Assembly: GCA_000004695.1 (NCBI GenBank) | Contig: CM000150.2 | Location: 3,456,001 to 3,520,000 of the forward strand | Length of the DNA: 64,000 nucleotides | DNA from: Dictyostelium discoideum | Lineage: Eukaryota | Reading direction: 5' to 3' | Shown: positions 3,757 through 64,000 of the stretch, piece after piece | Layout of the letters: the number at the start of each line of letters is the position of its first letter | How positions within the stretch are numbered: the stretch's first letter is position 1 | Notes under the pieces: generated by a model | Database searches by the model: none | Told to the model about the DNA's origin: nothing | The model's input: the letters and a program-made list of their open reading frames with translations, nothing else | Program-made: the position numbers and the translations under genes

Positions 3757-4406
3757 AAAATATATTAGTGCCAAAAGATATTTATTTATTTAATAATGAA
3801 CAATATAGTGATGAAATTATAGAATATATATTTTTAGTTAAAAATTATTTTGGTGAAATAGCAACTCAAGTATTTGGTAAATTTAATACATCAATTAAAA
3901 TTAAAACTAATGAAACAATTTTAATTAATGAAACATTTATAACATCAACAATTTATTCTGGTAAAGGTACATTTCAATATAGACTTTATGGTAAAGATTT
4001 AGTTTATACAGTAACAATATTAGATTTAAAACCACAATTATCAATGGATATAAAAATAAAAAATTGTTCACCATTTAAATATTTTGATGGTAATTCAATG
4101 AATTGTATTTATTGTCCAATTGGATACTCATTAAGTGATGAAAAATCAAATTCATGTGTAAAATGTAATAGTGAAATTGTAACTTGTCAATATGGTCAAG
4201 TGTTTTCAAATGAAAATTATTATATGGTTGATAATAGTCCTTTAAAAGTTTATTCATGTGCTAATGATATGTGTAATGGGAATAACACATGTATTGGTGA
4301 TAATAATATTGGTGATTTATGTTACTATTGTACAAATTATCATGAAAGTACTTCAATACAAGCTTCAAAGAATGGTATTCAATGTTGTTCAAATTTCAAT
4401 TTTTAA
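576..4406 (+). CDS. large secreted/membrane Asn-rich glycoprotein precursor (signal peptide, poly-N tract, beta-helix-like Asn/Ile-rich repeats, C-terminal Cys-rich EGF/TNFR-like module); exons 576..3678 and 3769..4406
   Basis: ATG 576 followed by hydrophobic signal peptide MKSIYFIFILLIVIVNSIVKSQ; (AAT)27 encodes poly-N 664-746; many N-x-S/T sequons; GTATGT donor at 3679 and (T)28..TTAG acceptor ending 3768 give a phase-1 intron (90 bp) that joins ORF 576..3686 to ORF 3768..4406 (which itself lacks an ATG) as ...NNLSI-M-PKDIY...; exon 2 has >20 Cys in C-x2-C / C-x-C spacing. Confidence 0.55.
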
Positions 4407-4572
4407 CTTGAATGAAAATTTTTCTTTTCATATAGAATTAGTATTTTACCATTATTTAGAATTTCTATTGATTTCTTTGATGGTTATTGTTATTTTAGTG
4501 GTTTAAATTATTTACATAAAGTTTTAATATCAAATTTAATTATTCTCTTTTTATTTATTATTAGTTATTCAG

Positions 4573-5399
4573 ATTTAACAATATGGTTGTTAAATAAATT
4601 TTTAAAAAAAAGAATTATAAATTTACCAAAATCAATTAGAATTATTTTAAAAAGAAATAATAATATTAATAATAATGATATAGTTTATAAAATTAAATGT
4701 TTATGGTCACTATTTCAATTATTATTTATACCAATAATGTTTAATTCAATATCATTATTAGTTAATAAAGTTGTAAATAATGAAAATTTATTAATAATAG
4801 ATTTTACAATTAAATACTTTGGTGGTAATGAATTTCAAATATTATTATCAACATTTTCAATTATAATTATTATTTTAATTTCATTTATTTTAATATCATT
4901 TACAATTATTAATTTAAATTTAATTAATAATAGATTGTTATTATCAAATCATTATTATTTAAATTTAAAAAGAATGATTTCAAAATTAAATTATAGAAAT
5001 GGATTTAAATGGTGGGATATAGTCATTTTAATAAGATCAATCATTTTCATAACACTTTCATTATCAATGATATTCAATCCAATTGATTTCATGCCAATTA
5101 TAATTGCAATTCAATTAATTTATACAATAATTTTCATTTTTATTAATCCTAAAAAAAATGAATTATCAACTTCATCTTTTAAAAAATTAAATATAATAAC
5201 CTCAACAATCACAATATCAGATCCACATAATATTTTAAATATAATTCAATCATTTATATTCATTAGTGTTGGTTCATCATTATTTTTAAAACTTTTACCA
5301 AATATTAGAGGTTTAATTATAACTTGTACATCACTTTTTTTATTTATTTTTTTTATTTTTATATTTAAAAATAATAATAATAATTATAATAAAAAATAA
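4573..5399 (+). CDS. polytopic (about 6-7 TM) membrane region, probably the 3' exon of the 576..4406 gene; junction unresolved
   Basis: Frame 0 (same as exon 2) is open 4416..5399 and encodes 6-7 hydrophobic helices; separated from exon 2 only by stops at 4404 and 4413; a 3n-length intron from a weak phase-1 donor (GTATTC 4375, or GTTGTT 4384 / GTTCAA 4387) to acceptor ttattcAG 4571-72 would join them; no ATG with upstream context for an independent gene except Met at about 4972. Confidence 0.35.
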
Positions 5400-5466
5400 T
5401 AAGATGGTGGGAATAATTTATATATACAATATTAGTTGTTTTTATTATTTTTTTATTTTTTTTTTT

Positions 5467-6113
5467 TTAATTTGCAGTTGCTTTAATTATTCTAATTTCA
5501 TCAATTGGTTTATCGTTATTTGTTTGCATTGCATTCATTTTTTGTACAACTTTCATTCCAGATTTAACTCTTCCAAAGATTGTATGCTTTCCATCTAACC
5601 AAGGTGTAGGCCCAAATGTAATGCTTTTTCCACACAAAATTAAAGATTAAAAAAAAAAAAAAAATTAAAAAAAAAAAATAAAAATTAGAAAAGATGAATT
5701 GGGTAGGTGTTATATATATATGTTTGTAGATAAGAAAATAATTACAAAAATTGTGATCCATTAGAATTAACACCACTGTTTGCCATTGATAATATTCCTG
5801 CACCTGTATGTTTTAATTCTTTTGTAATTTCATCTTCAAATTTTTTTCTAAGGATTTTATTATTAAAATTATTATTTTCATTTTTATTATTTTCCAAATT
5901 TTAATTCAAGTTAGTTTAATATTATTTTCTAAATTTCTAATTTTATGTAATATTTTTAAATGAAAAATTACCCATATATACTTTCACCTCCACGACCATT
6001 TCCTAATGGATCTCCTCCTTGTATCATAAAATCCTTTATGTTTTATTTAATTTTTTTTTTTTTTTATTAAAAATTTTAAAAAAAATAGTGTTAATGATTA
6101 ATGGATCTTATGA

Positions 6114-6190
<77 letters not shown>

Positions 6191-6395
6191 TAAAATATAG
6201 TAATAATAAGATAAACGAGACCAAGCCAATTGTTTTGTGACATACTTTAATAAGTCTGTGAAAAATTGTATTATCATAATATCCTCTTTTTGACAATTCA
6301 TAAAAGTTTTTACATGCTTTTGGTGCATGGTTATAATATAATTCCAATGTAATATCACCAACTGTTGTTTGAAGTGTTACTGTTTGTTCTGTCAT
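5467..6395 (-). CDS. peptidyl-prolyl cis-trans isomerase, PPIL1-type cyclophilin; 4 exons complement(6246..6395, 5972..6033, 5746..5847, 5467..5623), 156 aa
   Basis: Exon 1 MTEQTVTLQTTVGDITLELYYNHAPKACKNFYELSKRGYYDNTIFHRLIK then GTATGT donor; exon 2 DFMIQGGDPLGNGRGGESIYG (donor GTAATT, phase 2); exon 3 [34 protein letters not shown] (phase 2); exon 4 ITFGPTPWLDGKHTIFGRVKSGMKVVQKMNAMQTNNDKPIDEIRIIKATAN*; collinear with human PPIL1; all splice phases consistent. Confidence 0.85.
6114..6186. repeat. (AAT)n microsatellite (about 24 units) inside PPIL1 intron 1
   Basis: Perfect ATA/AAT triplet run; source of poly-I/poly-L ORF artefacts 6019..6395 in the ORF track. Confidence 0.95.
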
Positions 6396-6535
6396 TTTTT
6401 AAATTTCAAAAATAAACAAAAAAAAAAAATAAAAAAAAAAAAAAATGAAAATGAAAATCAAAAAAAGTGTGTGATTTTTTTTTTTTTTTTTTATTCATTG
6501 TATTATTTTTATTTTTAATTTTATTTTTATTTTTT

Positions 6536-59794: not shown

Positions 59795-61258
59795 ATGTTT
59801 TCAAAAAAAATATCATTGTATAATAAAACTAATGGAAAAAAAGATAATTCATCAAAAGTATTTTTATTTGTAATATTATTTGTTGTTTTAGTAATTGTTT
59901 TTGTGCAAAGTTTAAGTATTTCACAATTTAACAATGAAATCTCACAAACAACCTCAATAACTATAGATACTAAAGAAAGTAATGATAATAATAATTTAAT
60001 TATTAATAAAAATAATAATAATGAAAATATAAATAATAATAATAATAATGATAATAATGAAAGTGATGAAGATGCATTATTAAGAAAACAACATCAAGAA
60101 TTTAAAGAAGCAGAAGAGAAAGCAAATAAAGGAAAAAGTTTATCATATGCAACAAGATCATATGCAACTAGAAAACCAAAAGAAAAATCAGAACAACAAA
60201 TTGAAAATGAAAAATTAACATTATTAGAGAAAGATATTTTAAGAGGTAGAGTTTTTAAAGAGTTTAAAGATGAAGTTGAAATATTAAAGAGTCTTGACAC
60301 TGATCCAGGTTATGCAAGCATATTGAATTTACCAGATTATAAGCCACCAACAGGTGACGAATTGGTAGACAAAGTTAAAGATACCACATGGAAATTAAGT
60401 AAAGAGGAAAACCCATTCTATTTACCAAAACCACATATTTTCATCCACGTTCCAAAGGCAGCAGGAAGCAGTTTGGGTGGAATTTTCAAGAGAAATGAAA
60501 AGCGTGATAAATTTGCGCACCATTGGAAACATCCATCCTATTCAGAACTTGAAAGTACTATGCAAAAAGATTCAATTTTCGGACATATTAGATACGGTCT
60601 TCATTTCTATTTCAATGATAATGACCCAACTAGAGTACCAGAGAATCCATATGGTTTAAATAAGTATTCCTATATGACAATGTTAAGAGAACCAGTGGAT
60701 AGAGTCATCTCAAATTACTATTATCATAGACAAAATAGAAAAGATCCATTCCATGAATTAGCAATGAATCATAATTTAACAGAATGGATTAAAGTTGCTG
60801 CAGCTGGTAATAATGAGCAAGCCAGAATGATTTGTGGTATGGGTTGGGAGGATTTCGGTAACCAAACCATCTACGATATGGCACTCCATCATTTAAAATA
60901 CACTTTTAAATTTGTCGGTATAACTGAACAATTTACAGAGAGTTTGGTTTTATTTTCCCATTATAGTGGTTTTCAAAATATTAGATACTCTAAAATCAAT
61001 ACCGGTAGACAAAGAGTATCTGTTGATAAAATTCCTGACGATTTAAGAAAAGAGATTGAAGAAAGAAATTGGATAGATGTTGCACTCTATAAAATGGCTT
61101 TAGATATCTATAATAAACAAATTGATCAAATTGGTAGAGATTTCTTTGAACAAGAAGTAGCCGCTTACAAAGATAGATATTTATCTGGAAAATATAAAGT
61201 ACCAAATATTTTACATACAACTAAACCAGTTGAACAAACTCAACAACAACAACAATAA
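59795..61258 (+). CDS. type-II membrane sulfotransferase (Sulfotransfer_2 / HS6ST-like family), 487 aa, single exon
   Basis: N-terminal TM anchor VFLFVILFVVLVIVFV; 5'-PSB motif HVPKAAGSS and 3'-PB motif LREPVDRVISNYYY; poly-N/acidic stem region. Confidence 0.8.
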   Translation: MFSKKISLYNKTNGKKDNSSKVFLFVILFVVLVIVFVQSLSISQFNNEISQTTSITIDTKESNDNNNLIINKNNNNENINNNNNNDNNESDEDALLRKQHQEFKEAEEKANKGKSLSYATRSYATRKPKEKSEQQIENEKLTLLEKDILRGRVFKEFKDEVEILKSLDTDPGYASILNLPDYKPPTGDELVDKVKDTTWKLSKEENPFYLPKPHIFIHVPKAAGSSLGGIFKRNEKRDKFAHHWKHPSYSELESTMQKDSIFGHIRYGLHFYFNDNDPTRVPENPYGLNKYSYMTMLREPVDRVISNYYYHRQNRKDPFHELAMNHNLTEWIKVAAAGNNEQARMICGMGWEDFGNQTIYDMALHHLKYTFKFVGITEQFTESLVLFSHYSGFQNIRYSKINTGRQRVSVDKIPDDLRKEIEERNWIDVALYKMALDIYNKQIDQIGRDFFEQEVAAYKDRYLSGKYKVPNILHTTKPVEQTQQQQQ

Positions 61259-61399
61259 AAAAAAAAAAAAAAAAAAAAAAAAAATAAAAATTAAAAATTA
61301 AATTAAATTAAATTAAAAAAAAAAAAAAAAAGATTTAAAAAAGTTTAATATTTATTTGTTATTATTATTGTTTTTTAAAAAAGATAAAAAAATTTAAAA

Positions 61400-61872
61400 T
61401 TAATTTCTTAAAAATAATGATTTATCTAATGTCATTCCTAAAATTACCCAACCTGCCATAAACAAGAATCCACCAATTGGAGAAACACCCTATTATTAAG
61501 TTTTAAAAAATTTTAAAATTTTTAGTATTTTTTTTTTTTTACCAAAGTCTGGATAAATTTTTTTTTTTTTTTTTTTTTTTCTTTTTTCAAAATAATTACT
61601 ATTTTTCTATTTGTAAGTGATAAATTATATAATGATCCACTAAATAATAAAATTCCAGTTAAAAACATTGGACCAACAATATTTTGTTGTGTTGAGAATG
61701 GAACAAGGAATAAGGCAAATGAATGATAAAGATGGTATTGTTGTGCAGTTTTCCAAATATCTTGACGTGCTACATCAGTAACTTTTTTCTTTAATCCATG
61801 TCCACCATAAGCACCTGAAATAATAGCACTACAAGCGCTAATTCCACCAATTTTCCACCAAAGTTCGTTCAT
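61400..61872 (-). CDS. TMEM256 / DUF423-family small membrane protein, paralogue A; exons complement(61600..61872, 61400..61489), 120 aa
   Basis: MNELWWKIGGISACSAIISGAYGGHGL...YHLYHSFALFLVPFS...GPMFLTGILLFSGSLY... matches TMEM256 (GAHG, HxxLHSxAL motifs); donor GTAATT 61599, acceptor aataatAG 61490; exon 2 GVSPIGGFLFMAGWVILGMTLDKSLFLRN*; phase 0. Confidence 0.75.
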
Positions 61873-61892
61873 TTTTAATAATATTGAGATAA

Positions 61893-61923
<31 letters not shown>

Positions 61924-61940
61924 TTAAAAAAATTTTGGCC

Positions 61941-61972
<32 letters not shown>

Positions 61973-62241
61973 AAAAACATATCAAATCAAAATAATTAAA
62001 CTATTTTGTAATCATTCAAAAATAATTAAGATTAAAAAAAAAAAAAAAAAAATTAAATATAGAAATTTAAAAAAAATGAATTGTTTTGAGTGATTAAAAA
62101 AAAATAATTCAAAATAATAAAAAAAGTTAAAACACCATGGTGAAAATATTAATTTCCCAAAATACATCCACATAAAAAAAATATAATTATTGTGTGTTTG
62201 TATTATTATCCACTTTTGAATTTTATTTATTATTAATAAAT

Positions 62242-62306
<65 letters not shown>

Positions 62307-62439
62307 TAATTATTGGGCACAATTACACTAATAACTTAATCAATTAAGAAAAAATAAATAATAGGACAAAGGTAAATAAAATTTGAAAAATAAAAAAAAA
62401 AATATAAAAAAAAAAAGAAATAATAATCATTTTCTTAAT

Positions 62440-62734
62440 CTGATTCAGCGGTTCATTTGGTTTAGGTTAAACAGGTACAGGCTCATAAGGTATAAAGCAT
62501 TTATCCGGTACAGGTTTATTAGGTTCATCAAGTAAAAATGCATATTTAAGGTTTATCAGATTCAAAAATTTTAACATTTGATAGGTACAGGTTTAACAGG
62601 TACATGTTTATAAGGTACAGCTTAAGCAGGTTCATCAGGAACAGGTCTAACATGTTCATAGGGTTTATCAAGTTTTTAAAGTGCAGGTTAAACAGGTGCA
62701 GGCTTGACAATTTCATCAAGTTTTACAGTTTAAC
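62440..62734. repeat. GC-richer degenerate minisatellite-like array (about 10-12-bp units around ACAGGT(A/T)CAGGTTTA) at the duplication junction
   Basis: Recurring caggtacagg / aggttcatca / aaggtacag / caggtgcagg motifs over about 300 bp; composition is atypical for Dictyostelium intergenic DNA; no long ORF. Confidence 0.6.
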
Positions 62735-62807
62735 ATATAGATATTTATCTGGAAAATATAAAATATTAAATATTTTACAAACAACTAACAACTCAAAAAT
62801 AAAATAA
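62735..62807 (+). pseudogene. duplicated 3'-terminal fragment of the sulfotransferase gene (relic at the tandem-duplication junction)
   Basis: 62735-62800 atagatatttatctggaaaatataaaatattaaatattttacaaacaactaacaactc is about 85% identical to 61193-61258 (…DRYLSGKYKVPNILHTTKPVEQ…); it encodes ...RYLSGKYKILNILQTTNNSKIK* with no upstream coding body. Confidence 0.55.
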
Positions 62808-62934
62808 AATAAAATAAATTTAAATAAAATAATTATCTAATAAATTAAATTAAATTAAATAAAAAAAAAAAGATTAAAGAGAGTGTAAAATTTATTTATT
62901 GGTTTTTAAAAAAAAGGATGGAAAAAAATTAAAA

Positions 62935-63427
62935 TTAATTCTTCAAAAATAATGATTTATCTATAGTCATTCCTAAAATTACCCAACCTGCCATAAATGA
63001 TACTCCACCAATTGGAGGAAGTTTCTATAATTTTTAAAAAATAAAAATTTTAGTTTTTTTTTTTTTTTTTAATAATTACTATTTTTCTATTTGTAAGTGA
63101 TATATAATATAATGATAAATTTTTTTTTTTTTTTTTTTTTTTTTTAATAATTACTATTTTTCTATTTGTAAGTGATATATAATATAATGATCCACTAAAT
63201 AATAATATTCCACTTAAAAACATTGGGCCAACAATATTTTGTTGTGTTGAGAAGGGAACAAGGAATAAGGCAAATGAATGATAAAGATGGTATTGTTGTC
63301 CAATTTTCCAAATTTCTTGACGTGCCACATCGGGAACTTTTTTCTTTAATCCATGTCCACCATAAGCACCTGAAATTATAGCACTACAAGCAACAACTCC
63401 ACCAATTTTCCACCAAAGTTCATTCAT
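62935..63427 (-). CDS. TMEM256 / DUF423-family small membrane protein, paralogue B (about 90% identical to A); exons complement(63155..63427, 62935..63024), 120 aa
   Basis: MNELWWKIGGVVACSAIISGAYGGHGL...; donor GTAATT 63154, acceptor aaattatAG 63025; exon 2 KLPPIGGVSFMAGWVILGMTIDKSLFLKN*; the intron contains a second, micro-duplicated copy of the exon-1 end + donor (63061-63106) separated by T25. Confidence 0.7.
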
Positions 63428-64000
63428 TTTTAATAGTATTGAGAAAATAAAAAAAAAAAAAAATTAAAATAAAATTTTATTTAAAAAAAAAAATATCATA
63501 TACAAAATTACAAAAAATGTTATATTAATATTTTTAAGCGTTGTATGAAAATATTAATTTTTATAAAAACAATAATAAAAAAAAAAGTATTTATTAGTGT
63601 GTTTATGTTATTATTCACTATTGAATTATTATCATAATTAATGAAAAAAAATTGATCTATTAGAAAAAGAATTAACCGGTAAAGTGGTTTATCTAGATTT
63701 TTTTAAAAATTGTAATGTTTATCTAATTAAGATTTAAAATATTTTTTTAGTCTGAAATTATAAAAAAGAATTACAAATTACATCAAAAACTAAAAATAAA
63801 CTAACGTTTAATGATAAAAAAATTAATAATTCCAATAATAATTGTCTTAATTATAATTTCATCTAAATTTCTTTTTTTTTAATTTACATTAATAAAAAAA
63901 AAAAAAAATTTTAATAAATGAAATTCATTTTTTTGGGTGTTTTTTGTTTTCCTTAATTTACATTAAAAAAAAATAAAAAAAATTAGCGGTGGGCAAAAAT

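Follow-up and report, generated by a model that had tools for sequence, protein, structure and literature searches.

The window analysed here, a stretch of 64 kb, belongs to chromosome 1 of Dictyostelium discoideum AX4 and contains, in this order, the sulfotransferase gene DDB_G0269764 and two DUF423 paralogues, DDB_G0269766 and then DDB_G0270942. The first of these genes was recognised as a 487-residue open reading frame (ORF) that is 100% identical to DDB_G0269764 and whose product matches the Pfam family Sulfotransfer_2 (E = 5e-12). The spliced products of the two paralogues are exactly DDB_G0269766 (Pfam DUF423, E = 4e-22) and DDB_G0270942; the latter gene is intact, and a stretch of 47 nt is perfectly duplicated within it where exon 1 meets the intron. 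The features of the locus, in window coordinates, are the following:

59795-61258, plus strand: coding sequence (CDS) of the sulfotransferase gene DDB_G0269764
61127-61258, plus strand: 3' end of this parental gene, source of the duplicated stub, as its homology to the stub indicates
61400-61872, minus strand: DUF423/TMEM256 paralogue 1, DDB_G0269766, with two exons
62348-62439, plus strand: far end of duplication copy 1, whose last bases are ...AATCATTTTCTTAAT; its counterpart in copy 2 is 63754-63851 (collinear local alignment, offset 1406-1412)
62440-62447, plus strand: CTGATTCA, which bounds the variable interval on its left; L001, the sister lineage, has exactly these bases and the AATCATTTTCTTAAT before them
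62448-62734, plus strand: degenerate repeat array with base unit AGGTACAGGTTTAAC, detected by Tandem Repeats Finder, autocorrelation and a consensus scan; absent from the related loci L001-L008; no ORF
62735-62800, plus strand: sulfotransferase pseudogene stub (RYLSGKYKILNILQTT..., then duplicated 3' flank), detected by tblastn and blastn
62935-63427, minus strand: DUF423 paralogue 2, DDB_G0270942

The segment 62737-63476 is 80.4% identical to 61173-61925 at an offset of 1564 bp (blastn), and the upstream regions are also alike (62141-62250 resembles 63546-63651, offset 1405), the right breakpoint of the duplicated unit falling at about 62439. The locus is thus a tandem segmental duplication, in which the 3' end of the sulfotransferase gene, the DUF423 gene and its upstream region were copied. 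Copy 1 ends at about 62439, copy 2 begins with a truncated 3' end of the sulfotransferase gene (the stub), and the array lies between these points, with the junction common to AX4 and L001 (cttaat/ctgattca) directly to its left. The stub is identical to residues 461-476 of the sulfotransferase at 13 of 16 positions (tblastn; RYLSGKYKILNILQTT against RYLSGKYKVPNILHTT), and its homology reaches from 62711/62737 to 62788, against 61145/61173 to 61224 in the parental gene, where 61171-61188 reads AGATAGATATTTATCTGG. The initial annotation, made from the letters of this DNA alone, had placed the repeats directly upstream of a duplicated sulfotransferase stub, and the extent of the stub homology agrees with that placement.

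Composition and architecture of the repeat array

The G+C content of 62440-62734 is 34.2%, against 13.3% in the 300 bp to its left and 9.9% in 62790-62930, as the initial annotation had perceived when it called the base composition unlike that of the AT-rich surroundings; for comparison, it is 28% in the sulfotransferase CDS, 28-32% in neighbouring coding sequence and 21.4% in the whole window. Several short motifs are strongly over-represented in the array: ACAGGT occurs six times (0.05 expected from shuffles), CAGGT eight times (0.2 expected) and GGTACAGG three times (0.01 expected), these last being the sole plus-strand copies in the 64 kb. No other 300-bp window, either in the 64 kb or in the eight related loci, has an AGGT/ACCT density near that of the array, and no second copy of the array was found in the same sequences.

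The same stretch had been described as about 300 bp of variants of a 10-12-bp unit. The repetition is real, AGGT being present 14 times when shuffled sequences contain it 1.4 +/- 1.1 times, although the unit is longer than proposed: the base unit has 15 bp and is composed of a 6-mer (AGGTAC) and a 9-mer (AGGTTTAAC), with variants of 9 and 24 bp. The highest autocorrelation lags are 15, 9 and 24 (z = 6.2, 5.0 and 4.6, respectively) and the repeat families show spacings of 9, 15, 24, 33 and 42. Formal repeat analysis with Tandem Repeats Finder also detects periodicity, in no more than two stretches: 62583-62631, with period 15, 3.3 copies and 76% matches, and 62602-62660, with period 24 and 2.5 copies. 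The 15-mer consensus AGGTACAGGTTTAAC has nine copies in the array at a threshold of at least 11/15, when 0.05 are expected, and all seven plus-strand matches at 12/15 or better in the 64-kb window fall inside it. The units are 61-87% identical to the consensus, and those that match at 10/15 or better cover about 46% of the 295 bp, which means that the array is not uninterrupted. Head-to-tail repetition of a 10-100-bp unit above chance, by which minisatellites are recognised, is nevertheless present. The parts of the array are the following:

62458-62532, plus strand: cluster 1
62464-62483, plus strand: left copy of a 20-nt direct repeat, AGGTTAAACAGGTACAGGCT, 19/20 identical to 62685-62704
62533-62582, plus strand: AT-rich spacer of 50 bp with a small palindrome, separating clusters 1 and 2
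62583-62673, plus strand: cluster 2
62674-62734, plus strand: cluster 3
62685-62704, plus strand: AGGTTAAACAGGTGCAGGCT, second copy of this 20-nt direct repeat, at a distance of 221 bp from the first

Higher-order repeats, with periods of about 110-125 and 221 bp, are superimposed on the base unit. Blocks 62459-62492 and 62584-62617 match at 82% of positions, and blocks 62500-62530 and 62607-62637 at 81%, while the period of 221 bp corresponds to the near-perfect direct repeat AGGTTAAACAGGTRCAGGCT, which starts at 62464 and again at 62685. These 20-nt repeats are themselves composed of array units, and excising the insert between them fails to restore the L001 sequence. TTYATCAAG motifs recur across the array and at its right edge. 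The GGT triplets (n = 18) are spaced by multiples of three in 15 of 17 intervals, forming two phase blocks with the shift located in the spacer.

The junction in related genomes

The orthologous locus was taken from seven related genomes (loci L001-L008, L001 and L003 both belonging to D. cf. discoideum ACTFIY), covering +/-10 kb around each of the eight loci, about 100 kb in total. In D. citrinum (L002), L004, L005, D. dimigraforme (L007) and D. firmibasis (L008) the gene content is a sulfotransferase gene, one DUF423 gene and a SET-domain gene, with neither duplication nor array; L004 and L005 come from lineages labelled D. discoideum and are about 91-92% identical to AX4 at the locus. D. 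cf. discoideum ACTFIZ (L006) has another architecture, with two full and one partial DUF423 copies and no array; its stubs derive from the sulfotransferase at about 60935-61031, and its distal DUF423 copy forms one 90% protein cluster with copy 2 of AX4.

ACTFIY (L001), by contrast, has the junction and the stub as in AX4. Both flanks are identical in the two genomes, the left one over 23 nt (…AATCATTTTCTTAATCTGATTCA) and the right one over ATAGATATTTATCTGG, and between them L001 has 38 nt (TCTTGTTTTTTTAGGAAAAGAAGTTTCATCTCACAAAG) where AX4 has about 288 bp, that is, the length of the locus varies between related genomes. The 46 nt formed in L001 by CTGATTCA and TCTTGTTTTTTTAGGAAAAGAAGTTTCATCTCACAAAG are ungapped and collinear with 61127-61172 of the sulfotransferase (29/46; empirical p = 5e-4 against all window positions), so the L001 stub runs right up to the junction, and no AGGT motif is present in the L001 interval. 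The flanking non-coding DNA of the two genomes diverges by 13-19%. In L001 the second DUF423 copy has been shortened by a deletion of about 560 bp, and another 90 bp or so are missing from the upstream region.

The array is absent from all eight loci and, among the genomes examined, is specific to the AX4 lineage, where it replaces the first 40-46 bp or so of the stub. Since L001 has the junction without the array, the array is later than the original junction. The initial annotation had also suggested a recombination-prone sequence that mediated the duplication. This role is contradicted by the comparison: duplication and junction are present in L001 without the array, and nothing similar exists at either breakpoint of the unduplicated genomes, from which it is concluded that the array did not mediate the duplication.

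Coding capacity and RNA

Each of the six reading frames of the array contains between 4 and 11 stops. One frame of the minus strand has a proline-rich appearance, reading LDEPNKPVPDKCFIPYEPVPV, a stop and PKPNEP…, and also …KPYEHVRPVPDEPA, a stop, AVPYKHVPVKPVPIKC and another stop; in all, it is interrupted by five in-frame TAA codons, and the spacer shifts the frame. When its stops were patched, no Pfam domain was recognised in it, no relatives were found at E <= 10 among 5.8 billion proteins, and a composite of the other five frames gave no protein match in the same way. The protein collection searched includes the AX4 proteome, as exact matches to DDB_G0269766 and DDB_G0270942 show. An exhaustive HMMER search with a 36-aa ORF of the array returned one match, a hypothetical protein of the spider Araneus ventricosus in which (EPVPDKCS.P)n is fused to a transposase-like tail; the score is inflated by its eight repeats, and this protein was dismissed as a chance match and not as a homologue. 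Similarity to a known gene, which in the initial annotation would have made of this stretch a plain pseudogene, was looked for in all frames, with the sulfotransferase included, and neither tblastn and blastn outside the stub nor Pfam and protein searches detected any.

At the RNA level, no Rfam family was found in the array at E <= 1 and no tRNA was detected in it, nor any sign of a tRNA-targeted retroelement context. The DNA fold z-score is -2.35, a weak signal, since 4 of 200 shuffles fold equally well. The triplet spacing was considered as a strong sign of coding ancestry and rejected, because the 6 + 9-bp units, both multiples of three, explain the phasing of GGT/AGG, and indels of 3n are common in this organism (PMC7466956). 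The array is non-coding and probably non-functional, its proline-rich reading on the minus strand being a by-product of triplet-phased AGG/CCT. For annotation, this reading and the plus-strand ORF of 67 codons that is in frame with the stub should be taken as repeat artefacts and not as genes.

Origin of the array and likeness to known systems

The array is a lineage-specific degenerate minisatellite, and the reading that best fits these data, with a probability of about 55%, is that it grew in situ at the 5' edge of the stub by slippage or unequal exchange; including the variant in which the array was later lost from L001, in-situ growth receives roughly two-thirds. According to this model, in the AX4 lineage the first few dozen bases of the stub, around AGATAGATATTTATCTGG, would have been multiplied into the 15-bp (6 + 9) unit through replication slippage or unequal sister-chromatid exchange. 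Whole blocks of units would then have undergone further duplication, at about 24/39, 110-125 and 221 bp, and small indels and point mutations would have eroded the copies. Unit lengths of 3n, in an organism with many 3n indels, would explain both the phasing in triplets and the proline-rich appearance of the minus strand. In mutation-accumulation lines of AX4, the indel rate exceeds that of base substitutions, many indels are 3n and there is a 4.5-fold deletion bias (PMC7466956).

Several comparisons give modest statistical support to an origin from the 5' edge of the stub. Block 62448-62509, anchored at the shared flank, can be aligned to the L001 unit over its full length with a score of 13, for which the genomic null is 3.8 +/- 2.2 (p = 0.001), and this alignment ends in CATTTATCCGG in the array against TATTTATCTGG in L001. 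Between the consensus 18-mer AGGTACAGGTTTAACAGG and the parental AGATAGATATTTATCTGG, 12 of 18 positions agree without gaps, a level reached by only 27 of 127,324 positions. At the other end the last unit merges into the stub, since 62724-62748, which spans the junction, agrees with unit 62586-62611 of the array at 21/26 (p = 0.016). A 21-nt position weight matrix (PWM) of the unit scores poorly on the parental sulfotransferase at 61161-61163 and moderately on the stub at 62728 (rank 41). The p-values that support the in-situ origin (1e-3 to 1e-2) come from comparisons that are partly overlapping and partly post-hoc. The unanchored interior of the array gave no significant similarity in Smith-Waterman alignments to sulfotransferase 61100-61172 (p = 0.63), to the L001 seed (p = 0.36), to the stub at 62737-62800 (p = 0.66) or to 61173-61236 (p = 0.58), and the recurrence of the L001 junction unit as k-mer modules through the array was not significant either (p = 0.07-0.09). 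Of the three proposals of the initial annotation, that of a decayed coding remnant expanded by slippage fits best, on the strength of the L001 interval (29/46), the anchored block and the 18-mer, and it is not sustained by the unanchored interior. Two other properties count against growth in place. The units differ among themselves by 20-40%, more than the flanks of AX4 and L001 do, so that growth restricted to the time after the split needs faster-than-background change, or else an older array that was lost in L001; and the repeated enrichment in G (AGA to AGG) runs counter to the A/T mutation bias of the genome (PMC7466956).

A different source for the array, considered possible and distinctly less probable than growth in place, is captured filler DNA, the initial annotation having likewise proposed an unrelated inserted repeat. 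In this reading, a repair event in the AX4 lineage would have inserted an already degenerate repeat at the 5' edge of the stub, taken perhaps from a mobile element, from organellar or extrachromosomal DNA or from a proline-rich coding repeat in decay. Such a capture would account for an unanchored interior that resembles neither sulfotransferase nor stub nor L001 seed to a significant degree, for internal unit divergence (20-40%) in excess of that of the AX4-L001 flanks, and for a G+C of 34% and a G-rich motif that are atypical of local non-coding DNA. The near-perfect 20-nt terminal direct repeat that brackets 201 nt also speaks for it, and under capture the copies at 62464 and 62685 would mark the insertion or the last re-duplication. 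Against it, no donor was found in the 64-kb window or in the eight orthologous loci (+/-10 kb), where there is no exact match of 15 nt or longer; no frame has a protein match, the AX4 proteome included; and in scans of metagenomes and prokaryote genomes nothing appeared beyond isolated matches of 21-22 nt, located in contigs with a G+C of 57-65%. Moreover, when the 221 bp between the 20-nt repeats are removed, the remaining 67 nt align poorly to the 38 nt of L001, arguing against a clean insertion, and the first block of the array does align with the L001 unit, as described above (p = 0.001). Less probable again is an array that arose shortly after the duplication, in the common ancestor of AX4 and L001, and was collapsed to one unit in L001 by deletion or unequal exchange, an unlikely alternative that involves the same kind of element as the favoured reading and differs from it in timing and polarity only. 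The divergence between higher-order blocks (about 20%) resembles that between the duplication copies (80.4% identity), L001 has suffered the other nearby deletions mentioned above (some 560 bp in copy 2 and some 90 bp further upstream), and the deletion rate of D. discoideum is 4.5 times its insertion rate (PMC7466956), all of which would suit a collapse. No AX4 unit, however, is as near to the parental sulfotransferase as the L001 interval (29/46, ungapped), which also lacks AGGT; since a collapsed, diverged array should resemble the array and the L001 interval is instead more sulfotransferase-like, this observation speaks for expansion in AX4.

Function was also weighed, in the form of a proline-rich (PVPVK-like) exon on the minus strand, a small RNA or an array of cis-acting ACAGGT/CAGGTA sites, which would lie upstream of DDB_G0269766, at 570-860 bp, and downstream of DDB_G0270942, at about 200 bp; it is judged very improbable. 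The triplet phase of GGT/AGG within each block, the minus-strand reading (LDEPNKPVPDKCFIPYEPVPV and similar), the eight CAGGT and the fold z-score of -2.35 are the observations that led to this idea. The phasing is accounted for by the 6 + 9-bp units, the proline-rich frame is broken by five TAA and a frameshift with no open frame left, the fold signal is weak (4 of 200 shuffles are as good), neither protein homologues nor an Rfam match exist in the collections searched, and the array is absent from 7/7 other genomes, one of them with the same junction. It is just as improbable that the array represents the birth or death of a PVPVK-type proline-rich coding repeat out of pseudogene DNA, or that its eight CAGGT motifs, which are 5'-splice-site-like, insulate or terminate transcription between the DUF423 paralogues. 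The least probable explanation, close to negligible, takes the array for the collinear decayed body of a second sulfotransferase copy. Its position directly upstream of the stub invites this idea, the stub of L006 comes from a more upstream part of the gene (about 60935-61031), which would be consistent with an originally larger duplicated piece, and on the plus strand 62604-62807 can be read without a stop in the frame of the stub. Nevertheless, tblastn (word size 2) and blastn (word size 7) match 62739-62786 only, while the stub itself has remained 80% identical to its parent, and in L001 the junction lies immediately to the left, with just 46 bp of stub beyond the obvious homology. In a loose sense, then, the array does occupy the place where the initial annotation expected the body of a second sulfotransferase copy, although the junction directly adjoins the array on its left and no part of a gene body is lacking there.

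The array carries little weight for biology at large, and it offers a neat, datable case of fast reshaping of pseudogene DNA in D. discoideum: about 290 bp of G-enriched repeat in triplet phase stand in AX4 at a place where the sister lineage retains 46 bp that are still recognisable as sulfotransferase. The interval between the DUF423 and sulfotransferase genes has been repeatedly restructured in the D. discoideum species complex, with three architectures among close genomes.

Among known systems, the array resembles the degenerate minisatellites produced by slippage or unequal exchange, with which it shares head-to-tail variant units of about 15 bp, nested higher-order periods, occurrence at one locus only, sharp differences in presence and length between sister lineages and no coding capacity. 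This is the class of degenerate tandem repeats that Tandem Repeats Finder, reportedly described by Benson in 1999, is said to detect. It departs from such minisatellites in being very degenerate (61-87% identity to the consensus) and about 46% unit-like, with an AT-rich spacer. Tandem-duplication breakpoints can carry scars, in the form of filler DNA or products of microhomology-mediated repair. The array is similar to these scars in lying within about 10 bp of the junction at which copy 1 ends (…CTTAAT) and copy 2 starts with its truncated 5' end, and differs from them in that the sister lineage has the junction without the array, which makes of the array a later event. The adjacent 62735-62800 and the homologous interval of L001 are sulfotransferase (Pfam PF03567) pseudogene fragments, while the array itself, unlike them, has no detectable similarity to the gene. 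Finally, simple repeats, defined as having units of up to about 10 bases, make up 14.3% of the D. discoideum genome (Kucukyildirim et al. 2020, PMC7466956; Eichinger et al. 2005 cited there). In this organism indels outnumber base substitutions and a high share of them are 3n (PMC7466956), which matches the 3n spacing of the array. The unit of the array is longer than those of simple repeats, and its G+C of 34% is above even that of neighbouring coding sequence (28-32%). In a genome with about 14% of simple repeats, the array is an ordinary kind of object.

Restructuring of the sulfotransferase-DUF423 locus in relatives

Within the species complex, the sulfotransferase-DUF423 locus has been rearranged time and again. 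L006, from D. cf. discoideum ACTFIZ, carries a third architecture of this interval (reverse-complement coordinates 4001-6455), with the following set of DUF423 sequences, in the same coordinates:

copy 1
~4940-5137, partial copy
5947-6455, full distal copy

The sulfotransferase stubs of L006 have their source further upstream in the gene, at ~60935-61031 of the window, and in one of them a short piece is duplicated locally in tandem (agttttggtatttttt / agttttgttaatttt). In the orthologous locus of D. cf. discoideum ACTFIY (L001), comparison of L001 12590-12660 with window 62800-63357 shows that DUF423 copy 2 is a pseudogene. A deletion of ~560 bp has taken away the 3' part of the stub and, of the gene itself, exon 2, the intron and some of exon 1. 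The region upstream of copy 1 also has ~90 bp missing or replaced (window ~62302-62375). Between DUF423 and the SET gene, an intergenic segment of 66 bp (window 63815-63878) matches L004, a single-DUF423 locus, at 4855-4920 (reverse-complemented) with 92% identity, but is inverted with respect to the sequence on either side. This points to a small inversion, or to a duplicate in reverse orientation, in one of the lineages.

Divergence and internal duplication of DUF423 copy 2

Exon 1 of copy 2 (window 63158-63427), when compared with that of copy 1 (window 61603-61872) and with the orthologues, forms a long branch, differing by 6.7% from AX4 copy 1 and by 7-10% from the single-copy orthologues, while the copy-1 orthologues of AX4, L001, L004 and L005 (the other single-DUF423 locus) differ from one another by only 2.2-2.6%. 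Either copy 2 has evolved faster since the duplication, or the duplication predates these lineages and was followed by loss in L004 and L005. Copy 2 (DDB_G0270942) also contains an internal duplication:

63071-63117 and 63146-63192, perfect 47-nt direct repeat TAATAATTACTATTTTTCTATTTGTAAGTGATATATAATATAATGAT, with an AAA+T26 spacer

Read on the minus strand, this repeat doubles the end of exon 1 together with the 5' splice site, thus providing two identical candidate donor sites in the gene. The 100% identity of its copies suggests that it is very recent.

Simple repeats and readings of the array

The intergenic DNA around the duplication contains very long A homopolymers or near-homopolymers, shorter and interrupted in L001:

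62243-62301, 59 uninterrupted A
61898-61969
61257-61331

The degenerate repeat array adjoining the AX4 stub takes part in one reading frame:

62604-62807, + strand, 67-codon ORF (MFIRYSLSRFIRNRSN…YRYLSGKYKILNILQTTNNSKIK) that covers part of the array and continues into the stub, in the frame of the parental sulfotransferase

No homologue of this ORF was found, and it is explained by stop-free repeat units of 3n length. The proline-rich reading of the array has a single database match, a hypothetical protein of the spider Araneus ventricosus (GBN54224.1), in which at least eight 11-aa repeats (EPVPDKCS[LM]P[MI]) are followed by a mariner-transposase-like tail, and which is itself probably a mis-predicted chimera of repeat and transposon.
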